This document shows, piece by piece, positions 3 to 11,529 of a DNA stretch of 64,000 nucleotides; position 1 is the first letter of the stretch, and every line of letters starts with the position of its first letter. A program made the translations under genes and the position numbers. The notes below the pieces were generated by a model. It was given only the letters and a program-made list of their open reading frames with translations, made no database searches and was not told the DNA's origin. Where the stretch lies: positions 10,245 to 74,244 of the forward strand of contig JAVHQC010000017.1 in assembly GCA_036170915.1 (NCBI GenBank), in the 5' to 3' direction. The stretch is from Cyanobacteria bacterium auto_48_18. GTDB taxonomy: Bacteria > Cyanobacteriota > Vampirovibrionia > Obscuribacterales > Obscuribacteraceae.

Positions 3-305
3 AATCCAATCATGGGACTCTTCCTGACAGAGGCAGCCATCGCCGCAGAACTAGTCCGATGGATTCCGCTTACCGATCAACGAGACCGCCTCAAAGAGAA
101 TCGGGACGATCTCGAAGATGCGAAACGAGACGTTGAAGCCAAACAACGAACTCGCGGCAATCCAGACCAGAAGGCTGCCGACGAGGAGATCATCGAGAAG
201 ATTGATGGCGCAATCGACGACAACAAAAACACACGCAAAGATGCGCGAAAAGAGCGAGAAATCGAAGAGAGAAAACGCGATCGCGATCTTGACTTTATGG
301 AGTAA
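3..305 (+). CDS. C-terminal fragment of a 5'-truncated protein, possibly a conjugative relaxase
   Basis: Frame is open to the window edge (aat cca atc atg...). Charged coiled-coil ending RKRDRDLDFME resembles relaxase tails, and it lies 6 bp upstream of virD4. Function is inferred from context only. Confidence 0.45.
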   Translation, partial: NPIMGLFLTEAAIAAELVRWIPLTDQRDRLKENRDDLEDAKRDVEAKQRTRGNPDQKAADEEIIEKIDGAIDDNKNTRKDARKEREIEERKRDRDLDFME

Positions 306-311
306 ACAAAT

Positions 312-2405
312 ATGCAAACAACAGCACAAGACATGGGCATCGTAGACTCTACGCCAAAAGAATTACCGGTACTCGCAGTTAATGTTCTGGATCGGCTTGG
401 ATACCAGGTTTCCAGAGCGAGCAAACAACTCGATCAAATACTCGCCGTAGAAAGACTAGACGAGCAGGTCGGAAGAGATTGGTGGAGACACGAGTATAGA
501 GTCGTTCTCCGGTGGTCAGAGACATCAAATGGAGGCTCACTGGTCGACGTTGAAATCTCAGAGAAGAAAGGAGGTGGTACACACGAAGACTGCCGAAGTC
601 GATGCAAACAAGTTATTGCAAAGCTGCAAGAAGACGCGCAACGCGCAAAGCGTGTTTCCGCAACCAAAGCGAAGTCCACCATCCATGGTGGCGCAACATG
701 GGGTGATGAAAACGAGATTCGCAAAGCCGGATACATCACGCATAAGCCTGAAGCCACTCGATTAATCATCGGTAAGACACAGAACAACGAGTACATCTCG
801 GTACCGGAGCTGGTGACAAATGCGCACGCGATTGTCTGCGGACGAACCGGCGTAGGCAAGTCTAGAGGCTTCTTCATCCCGAACCTTATGGAAAGACTCG
901 GAACCAACATGATCGTCACTGAAGCCACGCCCGGATACGAACCAGGCGAACTGTACACACTCACTTCGGGTTGGAGGAAACAAGCTGGTCACCGAATTTA
1001 TTCGTTCAACCCCGCCGATATGTCCTCCACCCGAATCAATCCGGTCGACCGAGTAAGAATGGCGCCGCAACTCGAAAAAGCCAAGGAAGCCGAAAAGCTC
1101 GCCGACTTGATCATCATGAACGGCAGCGGCGAGGAACAACGCGTCGACCCAACATGGGACCGCTCTGAAAAACAGCTCCTCGTGTCACTGATACTGCACG
1201 CAGCAGCAACTGATCCAGAGATGGGACATATCGGCGCAATCAGATGGCTGCTTCTTTCTGGAATCAATCGAGTCCGCGAAACGATGGCAAAGAGTAAGTC
1301 CGAGCTTGCGCAGATGGAGTTCGAAGGTTGGCTTGGATCGACATCCGAGAACTTCAGATTCGGTGTGCTCTCGGGGCTGATGACGAAACTCAATCCTTGG
1401 ATAACTGACCAGCTCGTAGCGCTAACGGAGAAGACAGACATCGACTTTGAAGAGCTAAGAAATCAGTTGTTCACCTTCTACATCGCGGTGCCGAGCCGCT
1501 CGCGCGATAGCAAGTTGATCGGCTCCCTCCTGGTGAACTTCCTCCTCGATTACTTGCTCGACACTAAGGCCACTATGAAGTATCCGACAGCGATGTTCCT
1601 CGATGAATTCACCAACTTCGGAAAGATCGCAAACATCGCCAACGTACTGTCAATCGTCAGAAAAGCGAAGATAAGTCTCGTGCTTGGATTTCAAAATTAC
1701 TTCCAGCTCGAACGAGTCTACTCACAGAAGGAGGCGCAAATAATCTTCGATCAACCTGCAACGCAGATTTACTTCAGGCAGAAGAACTTCCGCGAAGCCC
1801 GCGCCCTGAGCGAAGCACTCGGAAGAACAACAATCGAAGAAGTCACCGTAAATGATACCGGTCGAGTGCACGAATTCATTCAAGGTCGAGCACTCGCCAC
1901 ACCGGATGAATTGATTAATCTGACCGGCGAAGTTATCGCATTCACGAACGACACCTGGCCGCTCAAGCTCCCGCTCACCGCGCCATATGCATACGAACAT
2001 GCATTGGCATATCCACCGCCGGAACGCCCAGATCATGAAATTACCGAGCACGTTCGCCGACGCGGCAGAACCGCGGAGCAAAAGGAGTCGCAGCAACATC
2101 AGCAGCAAGAACCAACAAACAACACCACCGAAAATCCATCAGGCGGAAACACCAGAAACCGCAGAAACAAAGACCGCAACAACAGAAGTCGTGACGGTGG
2201 AAATTTTGATAGCAGAAACCGCAATGACGAAAATCGCGACAACCGAAATCGACGCAAGCGAGATTCCGCAAGCCGCGATCGCGATAATCGCAACTTCAAT
2301 TCAAGCGCGCGAGAAACTCATGAAGAGCGCTCGCACGAAGACCAATCCTCATATTCACAACCACTAGACAACTCACCGGAGGTCGACGACGTATGGCCAT
2401 CATAG
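312..2405 (+). CDS. virD4: Type IV secretion coupling protein (VirD4/TraG family), lacking an N-terminal TM anchor
   Basis: Walker A GRTGVGKS followed by FFIPNL; INP motif; Walker B FLDEFTNFG; QNYFQLERVY; GRALATPDEL; R/N/D-rich disordered C-tail. Confidence 0.9.
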   Translation: MQTTAQDMGIVDSTPKELPVLAVNVLDRLGYQVSRASKQLDQILAVERLDEQVGRDWWRHEYRVVLRWSETSNGGSLVDVEISEKKGGGTHEDCRSRCKQVIAKLQEDAQRAKRVSATKAKSTIHGGATWGDENEIRKAGYITHKPEATRLIIGKTQNNEYISVPELVTNAHAIVCGRTGVGKSRGFFIPNLMERLGTNMIVTEATPGYEPGELYTLTSGWRKQAGHRIYSFNPADMSSTRINPVDRVRMAPQLEKAKEAEKLADLIIMNGSGEEQRVDPTWDRSEKQLLVSLILHAAATDPEMGHIGAIRWLLLSGINRVRETMAKSKSELAQMEFEGWLGSTSENFRFGVLSGLMTKLNPWITDQLVALTEKTDIDFEELRNQLFTFYIAVPSRSRDSKLIGSLLVNFLLDYLLDTKATMKYPTAMFLDEFTNFGKIANIANVLSIVRKAKISLVLGFQNYFQLERVYSQKEAQIIFDQPATQIYFRQKNFREARALSEALGRTTIEEVTVNDTGRVHEFIQGRALATPDELINLTGEVIAFTNDTWPLKLPLTAPYAYEHALAYPPPERPDHEITEHVRRRGRTAEQKESQQHQQQEPTNNTTENPSGGNTRNRRNKDRNNRSRDGGNFDSRNRNDENRDNRNRRKRDSASRDRDNRNFNSSARETHEERSHEDQSSYSQPLDNSPEVDDVWPS

Positions 2406-2959
2406 CGATAGCAATAGGAATCTTTGTGTTCCTCCTCACCGGAGCCGTAACCAACGAACTCACTCACGATCCAGGAGCAGGCGTTTTGTCAGGACTCATA
2501 CTCGGCTTCCTGGCAGCGTCTCCACTCTTCAAGCTCGCCGCACAAGAACGATCAAGCTTCTTGCACCCGGCACCTCGCGAATACAACATCCCCGCCAAGC
2601 TCGCCTTCGCAAAAATCCGCGACTACCTCGCCGAAGTCTCCTATAACTACGGCGACAAATGGCACGTCGTCACTGCCGACACCCAGTCCGGCCGCATCAC
2701 CGCCAACCTGCGCTTCACGGACGAATTCACCCGCATCGAAGGCGACGCCCGCGGCAACATCCACACCCGAAAGGAGCGTTTGCAACGCTTCCTCGCGCTG
2801 GATGTTCATGTCCGACGAACCGAGGATGGGACAACGCTAGTACAACTAGACTTCTCTCCTAAAGTCGAAGGCATGACCTACTCGGCATGCGACTCAATCG
2901 TTTCTTCCGTGGGAAATCAGATAACCGCGATCCTCGGAGAAGCAATCTATACGAATTGA
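2393..2959 (+). CDS. Two-TM membrane protein whose soluble domain resembles the VirD4 N-terminal domain
   Basis: GGAGGT RBS at 2378-2383; overlaps the virD4 stop by 13 nt; two hydrophobic segments in the first ~45 aa. Confidence 0.8.
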   Translation: MAIIAIAIGIFVFLLTGAVTNELTHDPGAGVLSGLILGFLAASPLFKLAAQERSSFLHPAPREYNIPAKLAFAKIRDYLAEVSYNYGDKWHVVTADTQSGRITANLRFTDEFTRIEGDARGNIHTRKERLQRFLALDVHVRRTEDGTTLVQLDFSPKVEGMTYSACDSIVSSVGNQITAILGEAIYTN

Positions 2960-3171
2960 ATATCGAACTCGAAGCCCTTAGACTAGTAGAGACATCTACC
3001 GGACCAATCAACTTGAAACTTTTGAAGAGAGCATTCTTACGTTGAAGGTCACGCAGACGAGAGTCCGAACTGGTGCTCAGTGAGGGTTGGGCTGCCTGAA
3101 ACTTGACGTTCGGTCAGTGGAATAGGCATCGTGGCACGATTTCATTAAAGATTGGGGTTTCGAGTAAGTTT

Positions 3172-4839
3172 ATGTTTTCCGAAAAAAACTCATACGAGCC
3201 GGACGCTCTTCGGGATGCATACAAGGTTCTGCTTGGAACACTTGGTTTCCAGTCGATCGAGAGCCTTAATGAGGAGACCGCAGACTGGAAAGTTGATACC
3301 TTTGACAGCTCTTATCTAGTGAAAGTCCTAACGGATCACAACATACGTTCGCTATATCAAATCGTGCGAAATTTGCATTACAGGCAACTTGAGCTGGGAT
3401 TAAAAGGGAGCATTATTCTTTATCATCGAATAATCCCTAAACCAAAGTCAGAGTATTTTGTTGGAAATTTTCCTTTGAAAATTCTGGATGCGTGTGCGAT
3501 AGGTGCACATTTGGAAATTCTGCTTGCTTATTCGCAAAATTTAGAAGACGAAGGAGATTTTGTGTCCAGTGGACATTACGCATTGGAAGGAGACGATCTT
3601 CATAGATCTGCAACCATTTTTGTAGACTATTTGCCAGAGGGCCACTTGCGCTTCTCTGGGAATGCTACGTACGGAAATCTTCGCGGCTTTGGTCCCAACA
3701 TGGGATTTTTTGAGTTTGTAGCTGATGATCTGAAAGATCGAAATTCGAGATTATTCATCTTGGACGAGGACTGGAAAATTCCAGAACAGTCAGCAGCAAG
3801 CTATGGAAATACGGTAATCTTTGAATCTACGGCTTATTCCGATGAACCGTATCGAGCGATATTCACATTCAAGAAATTCGGCTTAGTGGTGGAGGAACGC
3901 AATTTTCAATATGCACCATTCGGACACAATGTGTCCTTGAGTGGATTTTACGAAAAGGCTATTTTTCCTAGCGCTACGCGAGAATACTCTGCTGTTTCCG
4001 ATGACGAGATTTTTAGCCTATCTTGGAACTTCAAAGGAGTCTTTCGATCAATCCAGGTGGGCGCATTAGAAATCAGATTATGGCTGAACCAGTTTGCGCC
4101 AGATGAGCGACGACCGATGTTCTATCTTCTTCAGCGCGTTCGATTCTTCAACAACTTAATGGTGCGAGAAGCCGTTGAATGGTTGCATTTAAACACTCTG
4201 AAATCACTTGAGATTCAAAGAAATGACACTGAGAGCGAAAAGAGTTTTCTAATTACGGCTTTTGGAAATCCAGCAAAGAGTGGGTCAACACTTGCAAGAA
4301 TCTATCGATCAACCAATCGATTAGTCCCGGCAAACGTTGCACACCTCGATGATATCAAAGAACAACTTGAGCAGAATACTGAGATCAAACATGTTGTTTG
4401 CGTTGAGGATGTAATTGGTTCGGGAGAGGACATGCTCAATTTTCTTAGAGCACTTGATCGAAAGTTTGGACTGCTCTTAGCCGAACGCAATATTTCGGTC
4501 ATCATTCAATCCATTTGCGCGCTCACTGACGGTGTGAAGAAAATTGAGAGTGAAGCAAACAATCTCAAATACAAATTTACGCTGAACTATTATGAGCTGA
4601 TGGACAAATGCTTCTCCCAAAAACCTGAGTATTGCAACATCGATGAAGATTGGGATGAGATCATGAGGATAGCTGAAAAATACGGACGGCGGCTTCGGCC
4701 AGACAAACCCCTAGGTTATGGCGATAGCCAAATGCTCGCTGTCTTTCACGACAATTGTCCGAACAACACACTACCGATTTTGTGGGCGCAGTCGAAAGAA
4801 ATTGAGTTTTATTGGCAGCCCTTATTTCCTCGGGAATGA
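3172..4839 (+). CDS. Multidomain conflict protein: degenerate REase-like N-terminus, beta-rich middle domain, C-terminal phosphoribosyltransferase-like (PRTase-CE-type) domain
   Basis: PRPP-loop-like VEDVIGSG, KSG motif, and C-terminal PLGYG...FHDNCPNNTLPILW signature. ATG at 3172 preferred over TTG 3103. Confidence 0.7.
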   Translation: MFSEKNSYEPDALRDAYKVLLGTLGFQSIESLNEETADWKVDTFDSSYLVKVLTDHNIRSLYQIVRNLHYRQLELGLKGSIILYHRIIPKPKSEYFVGNFPLKILDACAIGAHLEILLAYSQNLEDEGDFVSSGHYALEGDDLHRSATIFVDYLPEGHLRFSGNATYGNLRGFGPNMGFFEFVADDLKDRNSRLFILDEDWKIPEQSAASYGNTVIFESTAYSDEPYRAIFTFKKFGLVVEERNFQYAPFGHNVSLSGFYEKAIFPSATREYSAVSDDEIFSLSWNFKGVFRSIQVGALEIRLWLNQFAPDERRPMFYLLQRVRFFNNLMVREAVEWLHLNTLKSLEIQRNDTESEKSFLITAFGNPAKSGSTLARIYRSTNRLVPANVAHLDDIKEQLEQNTEIKHVVCVEDVIGSGEDMLNFLRALDRKFGLLLAERNISVIIQSICALTDGVKKIESEANNLKYKFTLNYYELMDKCFSQKPEYCNIDEDWDEIMRIAEKYGRRLRPDKPLGYGDSQMLAVFHDNCPNNTLPILWAQSKEIEFYWQPLFPRE

Positions 4840-4881
4840 TCAACCTGATACTACAAACGGAAATCCAATTCCATCGGATCT

Positions 4882-7800
4882 TTAGCTTACCTTGTGATAC
4901 TTTGAATCTCTATTGTCAAACGCCGGTCGTGTGCCCTCAAGGATATCCACGACCTTTTTGTTGATCAATGGTTCCTCAAGTGAGCCTGAACTGTACTCAA
5001 TATTGATATCGTTTGCCTTCTCCAAGTGAGCGTGTATCACCTGCTCTGCGTCGCAGACAACGGCCAGGTTAGGATTATGCGTCACAATTATGACTTGTCG
5101 CCGTTGCTTTGCTTCGGTTATTGCCGGCACCAGCGTTTCGAAGACCGTCTGGTTATCTAAGTTCTCTTCGGGTTGATCGATGACCAATGGGATGTCTGAC
5201 TGATCAATTAGCAGATAAAAAACAAGGAGAAGTAGCCCCCTTTCTCCTGGAGATAACTGCTCTATGTCCTTATTGCTCAGGCGAAGCTTATACTGCGGAA
5301 TCAAGTATTCCAATCCGTAAAGAAAATCGTATAGCTGTTCTAACGAAACACCTTTCTTCAATTGGGTTGCCGGATCCGTATTGAATGCACCATCATCGGT
5401 CAAGTTATTGAACATACGAGTCAGAAAATCTATGACGTCGTCGCGATCGTTCCAGTCGAACTCTTGAAGAATCTCCTGTAGCCTGCGTGGTCCGCCTTCG
5501 CCGTAGTAGAACCCACCCGTCCCTCGGGAAATGAAGTCAAAAAATTGCCGCTCGAAGTCTTCCATTTCAAGCGAGACCGCAAATGAGAGCCCTATTTTGT
5601 CCTTAAGGAGTGGATGCTGTTCGGCAAATTCGCGAACTGGACTGTAATACTGTTCGTAAACTTTCAAGATATCTTCCAGCTTCTCGTGTATTCCAAATAC
5701 AATCTTTTCTCTTTCCAATCGAAGTGCACTAATCATTTGAGGCACGGTGTCGAGCGCGGTTAACTGTGCTTGCAAATACCCGAGCGAACCATCCAGCTCT
5801 TCGGAGCCAATCAAATTATTGCGAGCTTCAGTCCATAGCCGCTTCTGCTCCAAATACTCTTGGTACAGCAAGACTGGCTCAGAAAGCTTTTCTTCCAGCT
5901 CGCCGATCTGGCTGTCAATCTGGGCAAGCTGCTTAGGAAATCCGCCATCTAATTCTGTAGAAAGAAGTCCATCCAGATGCGCTCGGTTCAATTTCAGCTG
6001 CTCGCGTACGGTTAAGATCTGCGTATCGTCGAGCCGGACTTGAAATACTGATGCGGCATCAACACCAAGTTCTTCAAGATCTTCGGACGAATCTCTTTCA
6101 ACTTCATCCACCATTGTCCGCAAGTTTGCAAGACGCTCAACAAGCCGATCGCAAATAGCTAGTTTCCTCACGACCTGATGAAGCTGCTCTTCCGCTTCCT
6201 CAATTTTGCTTACAACCTGCTGGCGCTGTAGTCGTTGTTGTTCCAACGCTGCCACAGTAATCTTGTCGACATTGTCAGCTGACGGTTCCTTGATTTCCGC
6301 CGGAACATTTTTCTCATGTACTTGCAATTCTTCTTTCTTCTGGTTTAACTGCGCTTCAATTCTCTTGCGGTGCTCGGGCAACAGTCTCTGTTCATTTTGA
6401 ACAATGTCCACGTTTACCTTCGATAACTTAGCTCTATCAACATTTATTGACTGTTGAATCTGTTCAGTTTTAAAACCAATGAGACCATCAAGTGAGCCTT
6501 GCCCAAGTTTTTCCGCCGATGGAACGTGCGAGTAGATTACTGACTTAAGCTCGCCCTCAAAGCTTGAAGTCCCTTTCGGATCATTGCAGATTTCTTCTAA
6601 GAAATTCTGTGGAACATACTTGACCAGTTCGACGGCTGATGGATCCGGATTTTTGTCCATCTCGGCGCGCGTTGAAACTCCGCTGAGCCAAATTAACGTG
6701 GTTTCAAAATGGACAGACAAATTGTCTTTGCCCTTCCTGCGAAACTTGTGCTCATTTAGAAAGGAGAAGCACCTTGATGCTTGCGTGTTGCCCGCAAGCG
6801 CAATGCAGTCTGCGAGAGCGCTTTTCCCGCTTCCTTTGTTTCCTATGATGGCAACCAACGCTGCATTCAGCGGCAGCCGTGCGGCAAACCATGTTTCCTT
6901 CAGCGTCGACAGCGACTTCTTTTCTATCACAATTTCTTGAATGTACTTCGTTGCGTTGTTCTTTACTCTCGCTACAGGTGGCGGGACAGACCCGATGAAA
7001 ACTCTTTGATCAAATTCCTTAAGAGCATGCTGCAACCCTTTAAATGTCGGATCAGCTTTCATCCACGTAAAACAGTTACCGATTCGATCTTTCTGTCCAG
7101 AGTTCTTGAGATGATGGGCATCACTGCAATCAACAAGATGATCGTTAACTTGCGCATTGGTCAGAACTTTCCGGTGCCTTGAATAATCCTTATGGTTATC
7201 CAAAGCACTGAATACAAGATCGACGGAGTTGATCAGGTCCTTTTTCGTTGCAGCAGCCTGAGCCGTCCAAGTCATTGCAGCCCACTCAGCCTTTCCCACC
7301 GCAGTAGCGAATTTCCCTTCGAAATATGGACTTTCCAAAACCTCTTCAACTACAGTCGGTGCAACACATAGATTATTGAAGCCGGTTATCAGTGCCGAAG
7401 GAAAGGTGGCTTGCACTCCCGGCGGACTCGAATCTATTACCTTTTGTCCAAAGTCGGTAAGACTTTGCCGGTCAACGACACCGTTCCATTGCCCATGGGC
7501 TATACCTGGAGCCAATTGATATTTAGGTCTAAGGGCCGCAAGAAACTGTGCATCAATCTGGTCAGCAGTGAGCTCATCGGAGAAAATTACATGGTAGTTA
7601 ATCCTGCTGAGATCACCATCGGCACCGGCAAATGTTGACAGTCGCAGTTCAATAACGGGCAGTACACAGGCAATATTCTTGAGGCGACCGTTCTGTCGCG
7701 CCGCAACCACCTTCCGGTAACCGTCCAGAAAGAGGTAATCGTTTATGCCTATCACCGCGAATTCCGGAGGCAGAGATTCAAGATCTGCGAGGAATTGCTC

Positions 7801-7914
7801 CCACTTATCGCCGCCCCCTGCTCCATAAGTTGTGTTGACCAGAGAATCAGGAGTATGAACATGTAGGTCCCATCTTCTCCATTCCGATCCACGAGGGTAT
7901 TTGGCATTGGTCAA
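4882..7914 (-). CDS. PHP-domain plus SMC-like ABC ATPase fusion (Ppl / TrlF-like), putative anti-phage protein
   Basis: PHP motifs WDLHVHTP, INDY, IELRL, YHVIF, DCSDAH; Walker A GNKGSGKS; long coiled coil; signature LSPGERG; Walker B VIDQPEENLD; H-loop VTHN. Likely TTG start at 7914 with GGAG upstream (ORF track starts at 7998). Confidence 0.85.
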   Translation of the reverse strand: MTNAKYPRGSEWRRWDLHVHTPDSLVNTTYGAGGGDKWEQFLADLESLPPEFAVIGINDYLFLDGYRKVVAARQNGRLKNIACVLPVIELRLSTFAGADGDLSRINYHVIFSDELTADQIDAQFLAALRPKYQLAPGIAHGQWNGVVDRQSLTDFGQKVIDSSPPGVQATFPSALITGFNNLCVAPTVVEEVLESPYFEGKFATAVGKAEWAAMTWTAQAAATKKDLINSVDLVFSALDNHKDYSRHRKVLTNAQVNDHLVDCSDAHHLKNSGQKDRIGNCFTWMKADPTFKGLQHALKEFDQRVFIGSVPPPVARVKNNATKYIQEIVIEKKSLSTLKETWFAARLPLNAALVAIIGNKGSGKSALADCIALAGNTQASRCFSFLNEHKFRRKGKDNLSVHFETTLIWLSGVSTRAEMDKNPDPSAVELVKYVPQNFLEEICNDPKGTSSFEGELKSVIYSHVPSAEKLGQGSLDGLIGFKTEQIQQSINVDRAKLSKVNVDIVQNEQRLLPEHRKRIEAQLNQKKEELQVHEKNVPAEIKEPSADNVDKITVAALEQQRLQRQQVVSKIEEAEEQLHQVVRKLAICDRLVERLANLRTMVDEVERDSSEDLEELGVDAASVFQVRLDDTQILTVREQLKLNRAHLDGLLSTELDGGFPKQLAQIDSQIGELEEKLSEPVLLYQEYLEQKRLWTEARNNLIGSEELDGSLGYLQAQLTALDTVPQMISALRLEREKIVFGIHEKLEDILKVYEQYYSPVREFAEQHPLLKDKIGLSFAVSLEMEDFERQFFDFISRGTGGFYYGEGGPRRLQEILQEFDWNDRDDVIDFLTRMFNNLTDDGAFNTDPATQLKKGVSLEQLYDFLYGLEYLIPQYKLRLSNKDIEQLSPGERGLLLLVFYLLIDQSDIPLVIDQPEENLDNQTVFETLVPAITEAKQRRQVIIVTHNPNLAVVCDAEQVIHAHLEKANDINIEYSSGSLEEPLINKKVVDILEGTRPAFDNRDSKYHKVS

Positions 7915-8007
7915 AGTCTGCGCGCTCCCGTAAACAAAGCAATTGTCGTATTTCTTTCGATCTCGGCTAAGTCCCAACTGAACTCTTGATGGCACCAACG
8001 AAGTTGT

Positions 8008-8613
8008 CTAAGGCTGCTTTTGCGCCGTCAAAATCCGCTCGACCAGCTTGTACACTGTGGTGCCAAAGGTGCGTGGCCAATCTACGCACGGTGGACTGTC
8101 TCGTGTCTTGGCCCGCTCTATCGCAGCGACAATGCGATCGTCAGTAAATTTGCGAACGTCGATCCCTTTTGAGTAGTTGGGCAAATGCCTTTCCAACTTT
8201 TCTGAACATTGACGAGAACCACCGATGGTTGTGTCCTCGAAGTGCAGAAGCAACCAGTACTCGAACTTCGGGTTGCTCAAAGCAAGTCCATACTGCGCGC
8301 TTTCTTGAGACCACGCAAACAAAGGAATTAGCTGTTCTTCGGTCCAATCGTCCTTGTCCACGACGAGCCAGGCTTCATCAGTCTTTCGCAATGCAGTTCT
8401 TCTAATTCTTGCTTTGAGCCGCTCCAATACTTGTGGCGGAGAGGTCGCTTCTTCACCCGGAATACATTCGACTCGTACTACTGCATTTCCTGCGTTGAGC
8501 ATCGCGAAATACTGAGGCTCTGTTTTAGAACCTTCTACTGCGACAAGAAACAGCTTGCGATATCTGCGCTCACCGAGAGGGCGGCTAAATGATCGTCTCT
8601 TCTTCAATGCCAT
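8008..8613 (-). CDS. rloB: RloB-family TOPRIM-fold protein (AbiLii-like)
   Basis: FLVAVEGSKTEPQYF (TOPRIM Glu), WLVVDKD (DxD), SNPKFEYWLLLHF, TTVYKLVE; its ATG overlaps the ATPase stop codon. Confidence 0.88.
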   Translation of the reverse strand: MALKKRRSFSRPLGERRYRKLFLVAVEGSKTEPQYFAMLNAGNAVVRVECIPGEEATSPPQVLERLKARIRRTALRKTDEAWLVVDKDDWTEEQLIPLFAWSQESAQYGLALSNPKFEYWLLLHFEDTTIGGSRQCSEKLERHLPNYSKGIDVRKFTDDRIVAAIERAKTRDSPPCVDWPRTFGTTVYKLVERILTAQKQP

Positions 8614-9950
8614 TAGACACCCTGCTTACACTCGTTCTCGTGCCAAGAATGCACGTTACGACCGTCAAAGAAAACGCGAGGAATTCCGCCCAAGCGCCCT
8701 TGTAAGTAGCTCTTGCGAATGTCCTTGTCATAACGAACATCCTTGAAGTCGCTGAACGATGTTAGGCTAGAGCCGCCCTTCTCGCTCCGCTCTGTTATCC
8801 ACATTTCGTCCCGCCGCAGCAAATCCTGATCCATGAGCAACACATCGTGAGTGGTGAACAACAATTGCGCCCTGGTTTCGGATTTGCAACTCGACAGATA
8901 TCCTTCCAGCAGATGACGAGTGAGCAAGGTGTGCAAGCTGCGATCGAGCTCATCGATAACATAGACCTTTTGCGATTTCTCGACACAAAGATCCAGAAAA
9001 ACCGGCAACAGATCTATTACGCGCCTCGATCCATCAGACTCAAACTCCATGCCGAACTTGACGCTTTCACCGACACTGTTGGAGTGAAACGTCACTAGCT
9101 TTTTTGCAAACAGTTCACCATCCTGGCGCGACAAGGCAATTGGATCCCGGAGCATGAGCAATGCTACGTCTCCATCCTTCAAATTCTCTTCAATATCTGC
9201 AATGAATTCCTTCGGCAATCGCAAGTCGTCGAGACTTATTGCTTCGAATTCGAGATTCGTAATTCCAGTATCTAAATGCGCTAGCGCATCTCTCATCGCA
9301 CAGAGCGTCGGGCTGCCATCCTCTAGAAATCGCTCAAATCGGCCGAAGCGAGAATCTGGTGCCACCAGCTGAAGGTGATTCTCGAACCAGTCGTACACAG
9401 CTCGAAAACGCTCTACCTTTTGAGAAATTGAGTTCGTCAAAAAGAGTTGATTGTCTCTAGTTCCGCGAAAGACGAATTGGAGAGCTTGATCTTTTTCGAG
9501 ACTCTTATCGAAAACGATCCTGGAGCCAATCCGCTCGTACAGCACTTTCTCGCTCGATGCCAGTACTTCGACAAGCTTTTCTTCTAAGACAGCTTTCCTC
9601 GTTACGGCAAAACTGAATGCATAAATCTTCTCCTCAACAAGAACTTCGAGAGAGAACCGCGCTGGCTCCGTTGCGCTTGTTGGATCAAGCAAAAAATTTT
9701 CTACTGGAATTGCCGAACTTGGATGAGTGCCGCGTACGACCAAGTTCTTGATAAAGCTCAACGCCTTGAACAGATTTGTCTTGCCCGACGCATTGCCGCC
9801 ATACACAACAGCCAACGGAAGGATTCTGGTTCTATATTTGTCGACTGCAGGAATTCTTTCCCCGTGCTGCTTTTCCTTACTAGCAACCAAAGACAACGAA
9901 GCTTCCGTTTGGAAGGACATCCAATTCTGCAAAGTGAAGCTTATTAACAT
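8613..9950 (-). CDS. rloA: RloA / AbiLi-like AAA_21 ABC-type ATPase
   Basis: MLISFTLQNWMSF start typical of the family; Walker A YGGNASGKTN; ESDGSRR signature; Walker B IDELDRSLH; QLLFTTHD; RRDEMW; YLQGRLGGIP. Start reassigned to ATG 9950. Confidence 0.88.
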   Translation of the reverse strand: MLISFTLQNWMSFQTEASLSLVASKEKQHGERIPAVDKYRTRILPLAVVYGGNASGKTNLFKALSFIKNLVVRGTHPSSAIPVENFLLDPTSATEPARFSLEVLVEEKIYAFSFAVTRKAVLEEKLVEVLASSEKVLYERIGSRIVFDKSLEKDQALQFVFRGTRDNQLFLTNSISQKVERFRAVYDWFENHLQLVAPDSRFGRFERFLEDGSPTLCAMRDALAHLDTGITNLEFEAISLDDLRLPKEFIADIEENLKDGDVALLMLRDPIALSRQDGELFAKKLVTFHSNSVGESVKFGMEFESDGSRRVIDLLPVFLDLCVEKSQKVYVIDELDRSLHTLLTRHLLEGYLSSCKSETRAQLLFTTHDVLLMDQDLLRRDEMWITERSEKGGSSLTSFSDFKDVRYDKDIRKSYLQGRLGGIPRVFFDGRNVHSWHENECKQGV

Positions 9951-10014
9951 ACGGGTCCCCTTGCCTCTTCCGAGGCATTTCCTCTTTGTGAGGGCGTTTT
10001 TGCCCCTTAGGATC

Positions 10015-10058
10015 CAATTGTAGCACAAGACGAGAAAAATGCTCGTCTTGTGTAAAAT
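10015..10058 (-). promoter_or_regulatory. Putative rloAB promoter with perfect 11-bp inverted repeat operator
   Basis: CACAAGACGAG (10024-10034) N7 CTCGTCTTGTG (10042-10052); on the minus strand it runs into an extended -10 TGcTACAAT about 70 bp upstream of the rloA ATG. Confidence 0.55.
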
Positions 10059-10138
10059 ATTCGCTTCGAGCTTTGTGTTCCAAGAGCATTTGGCAAGACC
10101 GACGCTCAAAACCGGTCCAGACATGTCTTGTTTGAGAA

Positions 10139-10277
10139 TCCCGACACTTTTCCCGACAATTTGTCGGGATTTGCGCCTCATTGAAGCCAAAAGCTTAAGT
10201 CCCGACACTTTCCCGACATTGTCGGCGGTTCTTGGCGGCACAATTTCCTGTTTGCGTCGATTTTCTCGCGCGAGAAA
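10139..10277. repeat. Cluster of TCCCGACA direct/inverted repeats plus a 16-bp palindrome
   Basis: CCCGACA at 10140, 10152, 10201 and 10212; inverted TGTCGG(G) at 10162 and 10220; block duplicated 61 bp apart; palindrome TTTCTCGCGCGAGAAA at 10262-10277. Confidence 0.85.
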
Positions 10278-10306
10278 TTGGGCACTTTCTGGAAAATGTA
10301 CAGGTG

Positions 10307-10900
10307 TCAATCGTAGGAACGTATCTCAGCAGTCGGCTGGGGTCCGGCTTCGATGATGGCAGCGATTGTTTCCAGTTCGACCGGTTCGAAGTTCCAGTTC
10401 TCGACGCTGACGTTGATCTGTCGTCCAGAGAGCTTCCACCGATTGTGAACGTGTCCATGAATCAACCAGCCTCCAGTGTCGACAGGACGCTGACCATAGT
10501 ACTTCTGCATTGGCTCCTTTTCTGCGCGATATGGAAAGTGGTGCAAGAGGACGATCTCTCCAGCAATCTCCATGTGTGTTTCGATCTGCACCGAATCGAA
10601 TCCGGCATCGATATAGGCCTGCAGCCATTTGTTTGGGCTGCCGATCTTCGGATGACAACGATCGTGGTTCCCTGCTATGAGAAGCTTCTTTCCGTTCAAT
10701 TGAGGCAAAATGTCTGCCACTAAATGTGGTTGCATCGCAAAGTCGCCCAGGTAATATACCGTGTCCTCCGGCGCTACAACTCCGTTCCACGAACCAATCA
10801 TGGAGGCGTTCATGTGAGCGACCGAGTTAAACGGGCGTTCAGTGTATTTGATGATGTTAGCGTGTCCGAAATGATGATCGGATGTAAACCAAATAGCCAT
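10307..10900 (-). CDS. Calcineurin-like metallophosphoesterase (phage-associated type)
   Basis: Motifs SDHHFGH, LGDF, AGNHD, HHFPY, HGHVH; ATG at 10900 with GAGGA RBS. Confidence 0.88.
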   Translation of the reverse strand: MAIWFTSDHHFGHANIIKYTERPFNSVAHMNASMIGSWNGVVAPEDTVYYLGDFAMQPHLVADILPQLNGKKLLIAGNHDRCHPKIGSPNKWLQAYIDAGFDSVQIETHMEIAGEIVLLHHFPYRAEKEPMQKYYGQRPVDTGGWLIHGHVHNRWKLSGRQINVSVENWNFEPVELETIAAIIEAGPQPTAEIRSYD

Positions 10901-11185
10901 TTCTCTTCCTCTCAGCCGCGCGCAGATACGCAGGTTCTCGGCAGCGTCATCGGCAAAGTTGGAATCGAAAAATTTAGTCCAGTCATAATACACGACGACG
11001 CTACTCTCTAGCCTCTATTGGCTGGCAGCGCTTTGACGGTCGTTAATATAATCAGATGAACTTTCATAAGCCGTATCATATCATGCACTTTGATAGCGCG
11101 CTGACAGCACTCCCGCGTTTTCTTGCTGGCACCGTATCTGGTGTCATTGTCTCGGGCTTCATTGCCATTATGCTTGGAGCGCCAT

Positions 11186-11435: not shown

Positions 11436-11452
11436 CCCTTCAAGCTTTTAAT

Positions 11453-11529
<77 letters not shown>

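Follow-up and report, generated by a model that had tools for sequence, protein, structure and literature searches.

We describe a two-gene module in which a VirD4-family coupling protein without a membrane anchor is accompanied by a small membrane protein, here called the partner, whose soluble domain is predicted to have the same fold as the N-terminal domain of the coupling protein. The module is real, conserved and lineage-specific, and on balance we favour the reading that its two products form a two-piece coupling protein by direct pairing of these domains, with the partner acting as a tether in trans. An anchorless coupling protein with a membrane partner is already known; the matched same-fold domain pair and the element family carrying it appear to be new, in that we found neither described in the main texts of open-licence papers. 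Passages of PMC7434980 and PMC13037476 leave it an open question how coupling proteins lacking a transmembrane domain (TMD-less) arrive at the membrane and assemble there. The proposed link consists of two small, soluble, well-folded domains, making it accessible to straightforward binding assays and structural studies. The mobile elements marked by the module are abundant, being present in 75 of the 104 genomes of one family and without a description that we could find in open-licence papers, and the module points to a near-universal VirB4-like system of the host as a possible helper.

Background

Canonical VirD4/TraG/TrwB coupling proteins combine N-terminal transmembrane (TM) helices with an ATPase core. 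According to sections of PMC7434980, a subfamily has no TM domain and some of its members pair with small membrane proteins, as in TraJ/TraI of plasmid pIP501, where TraI "likely" anchors TraJ (PMC13037476, in its part on these proteins). The oligomerization of TMD-less coupling proteins (T4CPs) is described there as open (PMC7434980), and auxiliary coupling subunits are treated in general terms in parts of PMC12857230. Integrative mobilizable elements are characterized in a definition in PMC7434980 by a relaxase and a coupling protein and no VirB4 (see also PMC9585547). In this work we analyze the window, a 64,000-nucleotide stretch of DNA, together with related loci and genomes, following up an earlier note which proposed that an anchorless VirD4 and its neighbour carry homologous domains that heterodimerize, so that the small protein supplies the membrane anchor.

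The transfer module

On sequence and gene context, positions 312-2959 of the window are assigned to the transfer module of a predicted integrative mobilizable element, comprising mobC, a MOB_P-like relaxase, VirD4 and the partner (Table 1). Upstream on the same contig lie the relaxase and the mobC-like gene, together with a membrane ORF of 87 aa and a small gene of the HTH type. The relaxase matches Pfam Relaxase (E 3e-9) and, below their own cut-offs, the MobP1-3 models; it adjoins VirD4 in the window, and its cluster is present in 52 of 60 loci. With a predicted T4SS-DNA_transf/TrwB-type core, Walker A (GRTGVGKS, aa 177-184) and Walker B (DE, aa 431-432) motifs read from the sequence and a relaxase neighbour, VirD4 has the features of the coupling-protein family. 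Both reading frames stand as the earlier note gave them, overlapping by 13 nt, an overlap that recurs in 25 of the 54 genome loci showing a partner; in 12 loci a TPR gene family lies between the two genes. The window partner is a short form, many relatives being 223-226 aa long with a third, C-terminal hydrophobic helix.

Table 1. Features of the module, its element and related loci. Plain positions refer to the window; other positions carry the prefix of their locus (L) or of a contig (C) of the window's own genome (G000).
Feature	Position	Strand	Remarks
MOB_P-like relaxase, 3′ end	3..305	+	428 aa; start upstream of window (L001:9263-10549)
VirD4-family type IV coupling protein	312..2405	+	697 aa; anchorless
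VirD4 N-terminal soluble domain (N-domain)	312..656	+	aa 1-115; reduced helix-grip fold β-α-β-β-β-β-α (model)
VirD4 ATPase core	699..1970	+	aa 130-553; Pfam T4SS-DNA_transf, E 9e-50, over cut-off
VirD4 C-terminal tail	2064..2405	+	polar, low-complexity; length differs among relatives
Partner protein	2393..2959	+	188 aa; two hydrophobic helices form an N-terminal hairpin ahead of soluble domain
Partner soluble domain	2555..2947	+	aa 55-185; reduced helix-grip fold (model), longer β3-β4 hairpin than N-domain
Defence-like cargo	3103-10993		also a phosphoesterase-like ORF without PADLOC match
PRTase-CE protein	3103-4839	+	cargo between transfer module and tRNA
Ppl-like PHP-ATPase	4882-7998	-	cargo
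AbiLii/RloB-like protein	8008-8613	-	cargo
AbiLi-like ATPase	8613-10310	-	cargo
tRNA-Met	11453-11529	-	likely integration site
Repeated 3′ part of tRNA-Met	11447-11499		53 bp; exact copy at G000:C18:13796-13848
Integrase-like ORF and neighbours	G000:C18:12285-13848		beside the repeat
Small hydrophobic ORF	L001:8291-8554		87 aa; upstream of mobC
Candidate oriT motif	L001:8706-8721		between small membrane ORF and mobC
mobC-like gene	L001:8829-9266		upstream of relaxase, outside window
J-domain membrane protein	L025:13143-14291		follows partner
VirD4 copy without N-domain	L003:10088-11683		same place as L205
Two soluble proteins flanking VirD4	L198:2909-9293; L203:2699-9081		610-740 aa
Tandem partner-like genes	G000:C29:256764-258680		chromosomal
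VirB4-like clusters	G000:C1:2652-18165; G000:C33:182377-196388		chromosomal

A coupling protein without an anchor and its membrane partner

Hydropathy agrees with the earlier note that VirD4 has no hydrophobic segment, its best 19-aa Kyte-Doolittle window reaching 1.37, and that two such segments are present in the partner (window values 2.72 at aa 1 and 1.82 at aa 31). When windows of at least 1.6 within the first 200 residues were counted as N-terminal TM segments, none was found in 128 distinct N-domain VirD4s or in a set of 120 homologues. Among 20 additional regions with other coupling-protein matches, 18 belonged to the N-domain VirD4 clade and two held TM-anchored VirD4s (L211 and L212), which are canonical, sit in full VirB operons and have neither N-domain nor partner. 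Hydropathy and the structural model together put a predicted helix-grip domain, soluble in character, at the position of the membrane anchor of canonical VirD4; in the partner the same-fold domain is modeled as following a membrane hairpin of two helices. The basic residues that come after the second of these suggest that this domain is cytoplasmic.

VirD4 shares with canonical VirD4/TraG/TrwB proteins the ATPase core, the Walker motifs, an HG-A-W motif before the core and an acidic or polar tail, but a 115-aa soluble domain stands in place of their N-terminal TM helices. By hydropathy it has none of the two or more such helices of the canonical type and resembles TMD-less T4CPs in having no TM domain at all, with a small membrane protein gene alongside as in the TraJ/TraI type. 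In pIP501, too, a TM-less VirD4-like ATPase has beside it a small membrane protein that is proposed to anchor it (passages of PMC7434980 and PMC13037476). However, the plasmid pIP501 is self-transmissible and encodes a channel of its own, and those passages describe no matched same-fold domain pair; the comparison with TraI and TraJ is one of described features. In TraG-J pairs, as presented in a section of PMC7434980, the coupling protein likewise depends on a neighbouring membrane protein of ~200 aa, but it retains membrane segments itself and its TraJ-like partner can have as many as five TM helices, whereas here VirD4 has zero TM helices, and is not itself a membrane protein, and the partner has two or three helices plus a soluble domain. 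By these testable features the pair falls into the TMD-less group and would function in the manner of TraJ/TraI, being neither canonical VirD4-type nor TraG-J. The earlier note knew of no described system with two homologous domains that heterodimerize; the general arrangement of TM-less coupling protein and small membrane partner, which it gave as known, is on record in part of PMC7434980, and what seems new is the domain pair.

Most partners retain the hydrophobic hairpin. In two homologues (L106 and L168) the helices are rich in Lys and none is hydrophobic, and two others (L093 and L162) have a single helix behind a different large domain. Because of the homologues without a hydrophobic helix, and of partner-like genes found away from VirD4, anchoring cannot account for everything. 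It is worth weighing, unlikely as we judge it, that the domains bind but that the partner serves chiefly to adapt or regulate the coupling complex, by attaching that complex to the helper channel or by governing how it is assembled, with tethering as a secondary role. A constant domain attached to a membrane part that varies from two or three helices to one or to a non-hydrophobic stretch would suit such a function, and auxiliary coupling-complex subunits are a recognized theme (PMC12857230, in part), but the hairpin kept by most partners and the want of an own anchor in every VirD4 of the clade argue for tethering.

In one place (L003/L205) a VirD4 copy has lost its N-domain and the partner is kept, probably in a decayed element, and in L198 and L203 the two soluble proteins that flank VirD4 are related to each other.

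Similarity of the two soluble domains

The earlier note based homology of the domains on a 31-aa ungapped match with 11 identities, a shared Cys and an upstream match (ASKQLDQILA/ADTQSGRITA). The 31-aa match is present and, as a single pair, weak: its score was reached by 11 of 5000 shuffles, and BLASTP of the two domains against each other returned nothing significant. Profile alignments recover the upstream match and keep the register over the last strand, but insert a gap before the final helix. They also pair partner Cys166 with VirD4 Cys98 instead of Cys94, a shift of four residues, and because Cys166 is not conserved in distant partners the shared Cys does not count as evidence at the level of the family.

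AlphaFold models of the partner domain (pLDDT 90.5) and of the N-domain (pLDDT 90.6) were compared through the order of their secondary-structure elements and the structural matches common to both, rather than by direct superposition. Element order is identical, strand-helix-four strands-helix (helix-grip), and 1vjh, BamC and KA1 domains stand near the top of both match lists. The partner model matches 1vjh (Z 12.5, rmsd 3.1, 109 aligned), KA1 5iri (Z 10.8) and BamC 2laf (Z 10.6); the N-domain matches BamC 2laf (Z 11.6, rmsd 3.8, 105 aligned), 1vjh (Z 11.5, rmsd 2.4, 104 aligned) and KA1 5wi2 (Z 10.5). These references, namely the BamC N-domain (2laf/2yh6), KA1 (5wi2/5iri) and At1g24000 (1vjh), share the reduced helix-grip fold at Z 10-12.5, but show no sequence match, and the fold gives no function. 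The helix-grip fold is moreover widespread, with 58-61 chains at Z of at least 8 per model, and likeness of fold is therefore by itself no proof of ancestry. KA1 domains bind lipids; KA1-like lipid binding by the N-domain is unlikely because of its median net charge of -2, KA1 domains being basic.

The best profile-profile match, obtained with 60 paired loci, covers 76 colinear columns at a probability of 40% (E 3e-4). Shallow alignments gave probabilities of 0.4% and 3.3%, and the deepest gave 11% with a score of 21.5, above the maximum of 15.3 among 60 column shuffles and the 11.5 of the reversed profile. We rely on the 76-column match because another alignment, at 39.7%, had its strands out of register and was set aside. 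HMMs of the two domains did not detect each other, a profile run against a single short partner gave no match, and searches of Pfam, NCBIfam, PADLOC and PDB sequences yielded no family for either domain. The ESM Atlas offered no usable match for the N-domain and, for the partner, unnamed clusters only, including an Actinomycetota cluster at 0.88. A response regulator match to the N-domain HMM (E 0.0016) was dropped as fragmentary. The claim of homologous domains is thus borne out as to the same modeled fold and a weak profile similarity, with common ancestry likely but unproven; we think it probable that the two domains share ancestry and arose by duplication.

Conservation and distribution of the gene pair

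Gene-neighbourhood and genome surveys showed the strong co-occurrence of the two genes that the earlier note expected. Of 59 genome loci, 54 have the partner after VirD4; four of the other five are cut and one has a broken gene. Adding 80 metagenome loci produced a partly redundant set of 138 loci with the ATPase core, 14 of them with too little downstream DNA; in the 124 evaluable loci the partner lies within 1.5 kb in 115, further off in three and is missing in six. An iterated profile found remote partners in four of these six (L093, L106, L162 and L168; leave-out E 2e-10 to 2e-3), and none in L107 and L159, both with little upstream DNA. The 18 extra regions of the N-domain clade comprise seven with a partner, two (L198 and L203) where it lies 7-8 kb off on the other strand, six on short or cut contigs, two (L199 and L202) with no partner in the region DNA and one (L195) with a match only at E 0.2.

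A search of 401 genomes of the class detected the N-domain in 75 genomes and the partner domain in 72. All of these belong to the window's own family, and the remaining 297 genomes yielded neither domain. The 104 family genomes, whose kin are not independent and many of which are incomplete, divide into 68 with both domains, seven with the N-domain only, four with the partner only and 25 with neither. Titled relatives are mostly Obscuribacterales or Melainabacteria. Searched against 1.84 billion representatives, the N-domain profile gave 35 matches, with no partner among them and no TM segment ahead of the domain in the 23 inspected, and the partner had no match at E 0.01 among 72,556 plasmid records. 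A fused partner-VirD4 was absent from 14 longer matches (all 233-269 aa; 8000 candidates scored), which is weak evidence, and a 1213-aa ORF of L054 was rejected as a fusion, consisting of a VirD4 fragment joined to unrelated sequence. Partner-like genes also occur with no VirD4 nearby, on contig C29 of the window's own genome and as single genes in L217 and L219, and because such membrane proteins exist we regard the partner domain as a module of the host lineage. The C29 site encodes three tandem membrane proteins with the partner-like domain (best E 1e-4).

The gene neighbourhood also bears on whether the anchor might be another membrane gene, either the 87-aa ORF upstream of mobC or a J-domain protein, with the shared fold a coincidence. 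Families of small membrane ORFs in 23 and 18 of the 60 loci, a J-domain protein in 44, and the unproven homology of the two domains leave room for this reading, which we nonetheless hold to be very improbable: the J-domain gene that comes after the partner in relatives does not adjoin it in the window, and several distant loci with a partner showed no small ORF of at least 85 aa. The 87-aa ORF has no Pfam or NCBIfam family. The J-domain membrane protein comes after the partner in those 44 loci, L025 and its relatives among them, and in L167 a J-domain protein is fused with a partner domain into one 436-aa ORF.

Proposed pairing of the domains

Complex prediction for the two domains gave scores of 0.52, 0.43 and 0.29 in three runs, the best of three controls scoring 0.01; the median of 0.43 lies in a band that the tool rates as more often wrong than right unless the pairing is likely beforehand. 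Contacts agreed between runs to at least 96% and partner pLDDT was at least 83, and the run at 0.29 fell under the tool's mark. That mark is reached by 116 of 157 solved pairs and 2 of 215 mismatched pairs, with only 18 solved pairs and both mismatches at 0.60 or under. The heterodimer of the earlier note thus obtains a weak pass over the controls.

Divergence of the partner tracks that of the N-domain. With the relaxase and four ATPase segments as controls and one locus left out for a broken gene, partner and N-domain distances correlate over 53 loci (partial Spearman 0.43, permutation p 0.001), although the loci are not independent and similar evolutionary rates could inflate the signal. Partial correlations of the partner with the ATPase segments and relaxase range from -0.05 to 0.19, and relaxase distances show no preference for the N-domain (0.17). 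The N-domain is the part of VirD4 furthest from the partner gene, yet the one best tracked by it. Co-divergence is 0.44 in the 38 closer loci and -0.02 in the 15 distant ones.

Specific tracking over the greatest distance, the weak pass in complex prediction and an N-domain charge at odds with that of lipid-binding KA1 domains make it quite unlikely that the two domains do not bind, each contacting a third component instead, be it a host channel subunit or itself. The N-domain would then dock VirD4 directly and the partner would do a separate job such as entry exclusion, a task performed by small membrane proteins; such a division would be compatible with the stand-alone partner-like genes and the variable gene position, and mobile-element linkage alone would yield co-occurrence. 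In the two-piece coupling protein that we favour, the N-domain and the partner's soluble domain would most likely bind directly, the bound partner would hold the VirD4 ATPase at the inner membrane in trans, and the two proteins together would work as a single coupling protein. The earlier note named dissimilar domains, a TM segment in VirD4 and genes that do not co-occur as findings that would tell against it; we found structural and weak profile similarity, no such segment, and co-occurrence.

The predicted mobilizable element and its candidate helper

The tRNA-Met beyond the cargo also lies downstream in four close relatives. Its repeated 3′ part on contig C18 stands beside an integrase-like ORF, and this region is probably the other end of the element; it also holds type I restriction-modification-like genes, an HTH gene and a J-domain-like gene by the repeat. 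This suggests a single integrative element, 35 kb or longer, that is split over contigs C17 and C18 with the join unassembled. The conserved intergenic motif upstream of mobC, beside an inverted repeat and exact in 13 of 220 loci, is a candidate oriT and may resemble MOB_P nick sites.

Neither VirB4 nor any other channel gene turned up in the 45 gene clusters most common in the 60 loci, or in the assembled parts of the window element, the gap between its contigs lying outside view. Like other integrative mobilizable elements it has a relaxase, a coupling protein and probable tRNA-end integration, with channel genes not seen, but it is restricted to one Vampirovibrionia family and has what would be a two-piece coupling protein. 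Because no VirB4 of its own was seen, it would have to rely on a channel from elsewhere in the cell, and the chromosomal VirB4-like system of the host is a plausible source. Classical VirB4 (PF03135) occurs in 3 of the 104 family genomes, and the conclusion that the family has no VirB4 was overturned by the VirB4-like P-loop family PF19044, found in 103 of them, mostly twice.

A further-reaching idea, which we regard as doubtful, is that a duplicated helix-grip pair replaces the anchor and plugs motors into the host machine in an element-specific manner. Minimal elements would, family-wide, plug a DNA motor into a host chromosomal type IV secretion-like machine, and element-specific pairs would stop co-resident elements, up to six or more of them, from cross-using motors.

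Vampirovibrio has a different, T-type system (PMC4451040, in part). In the window's own genome, two chromosomal clusters, on C1 and C33, encode VirB4-like ATPases (936 and 941 aa) and may serve the element as helper. Both contain very large membrane proteins and small VirB3-like ORFs, labeled by size, hydropathy and position, and the C33 cluster adds a 1020-aa hydrophobic VirD4-like gene and, upstream, four near-identical tandem genes.
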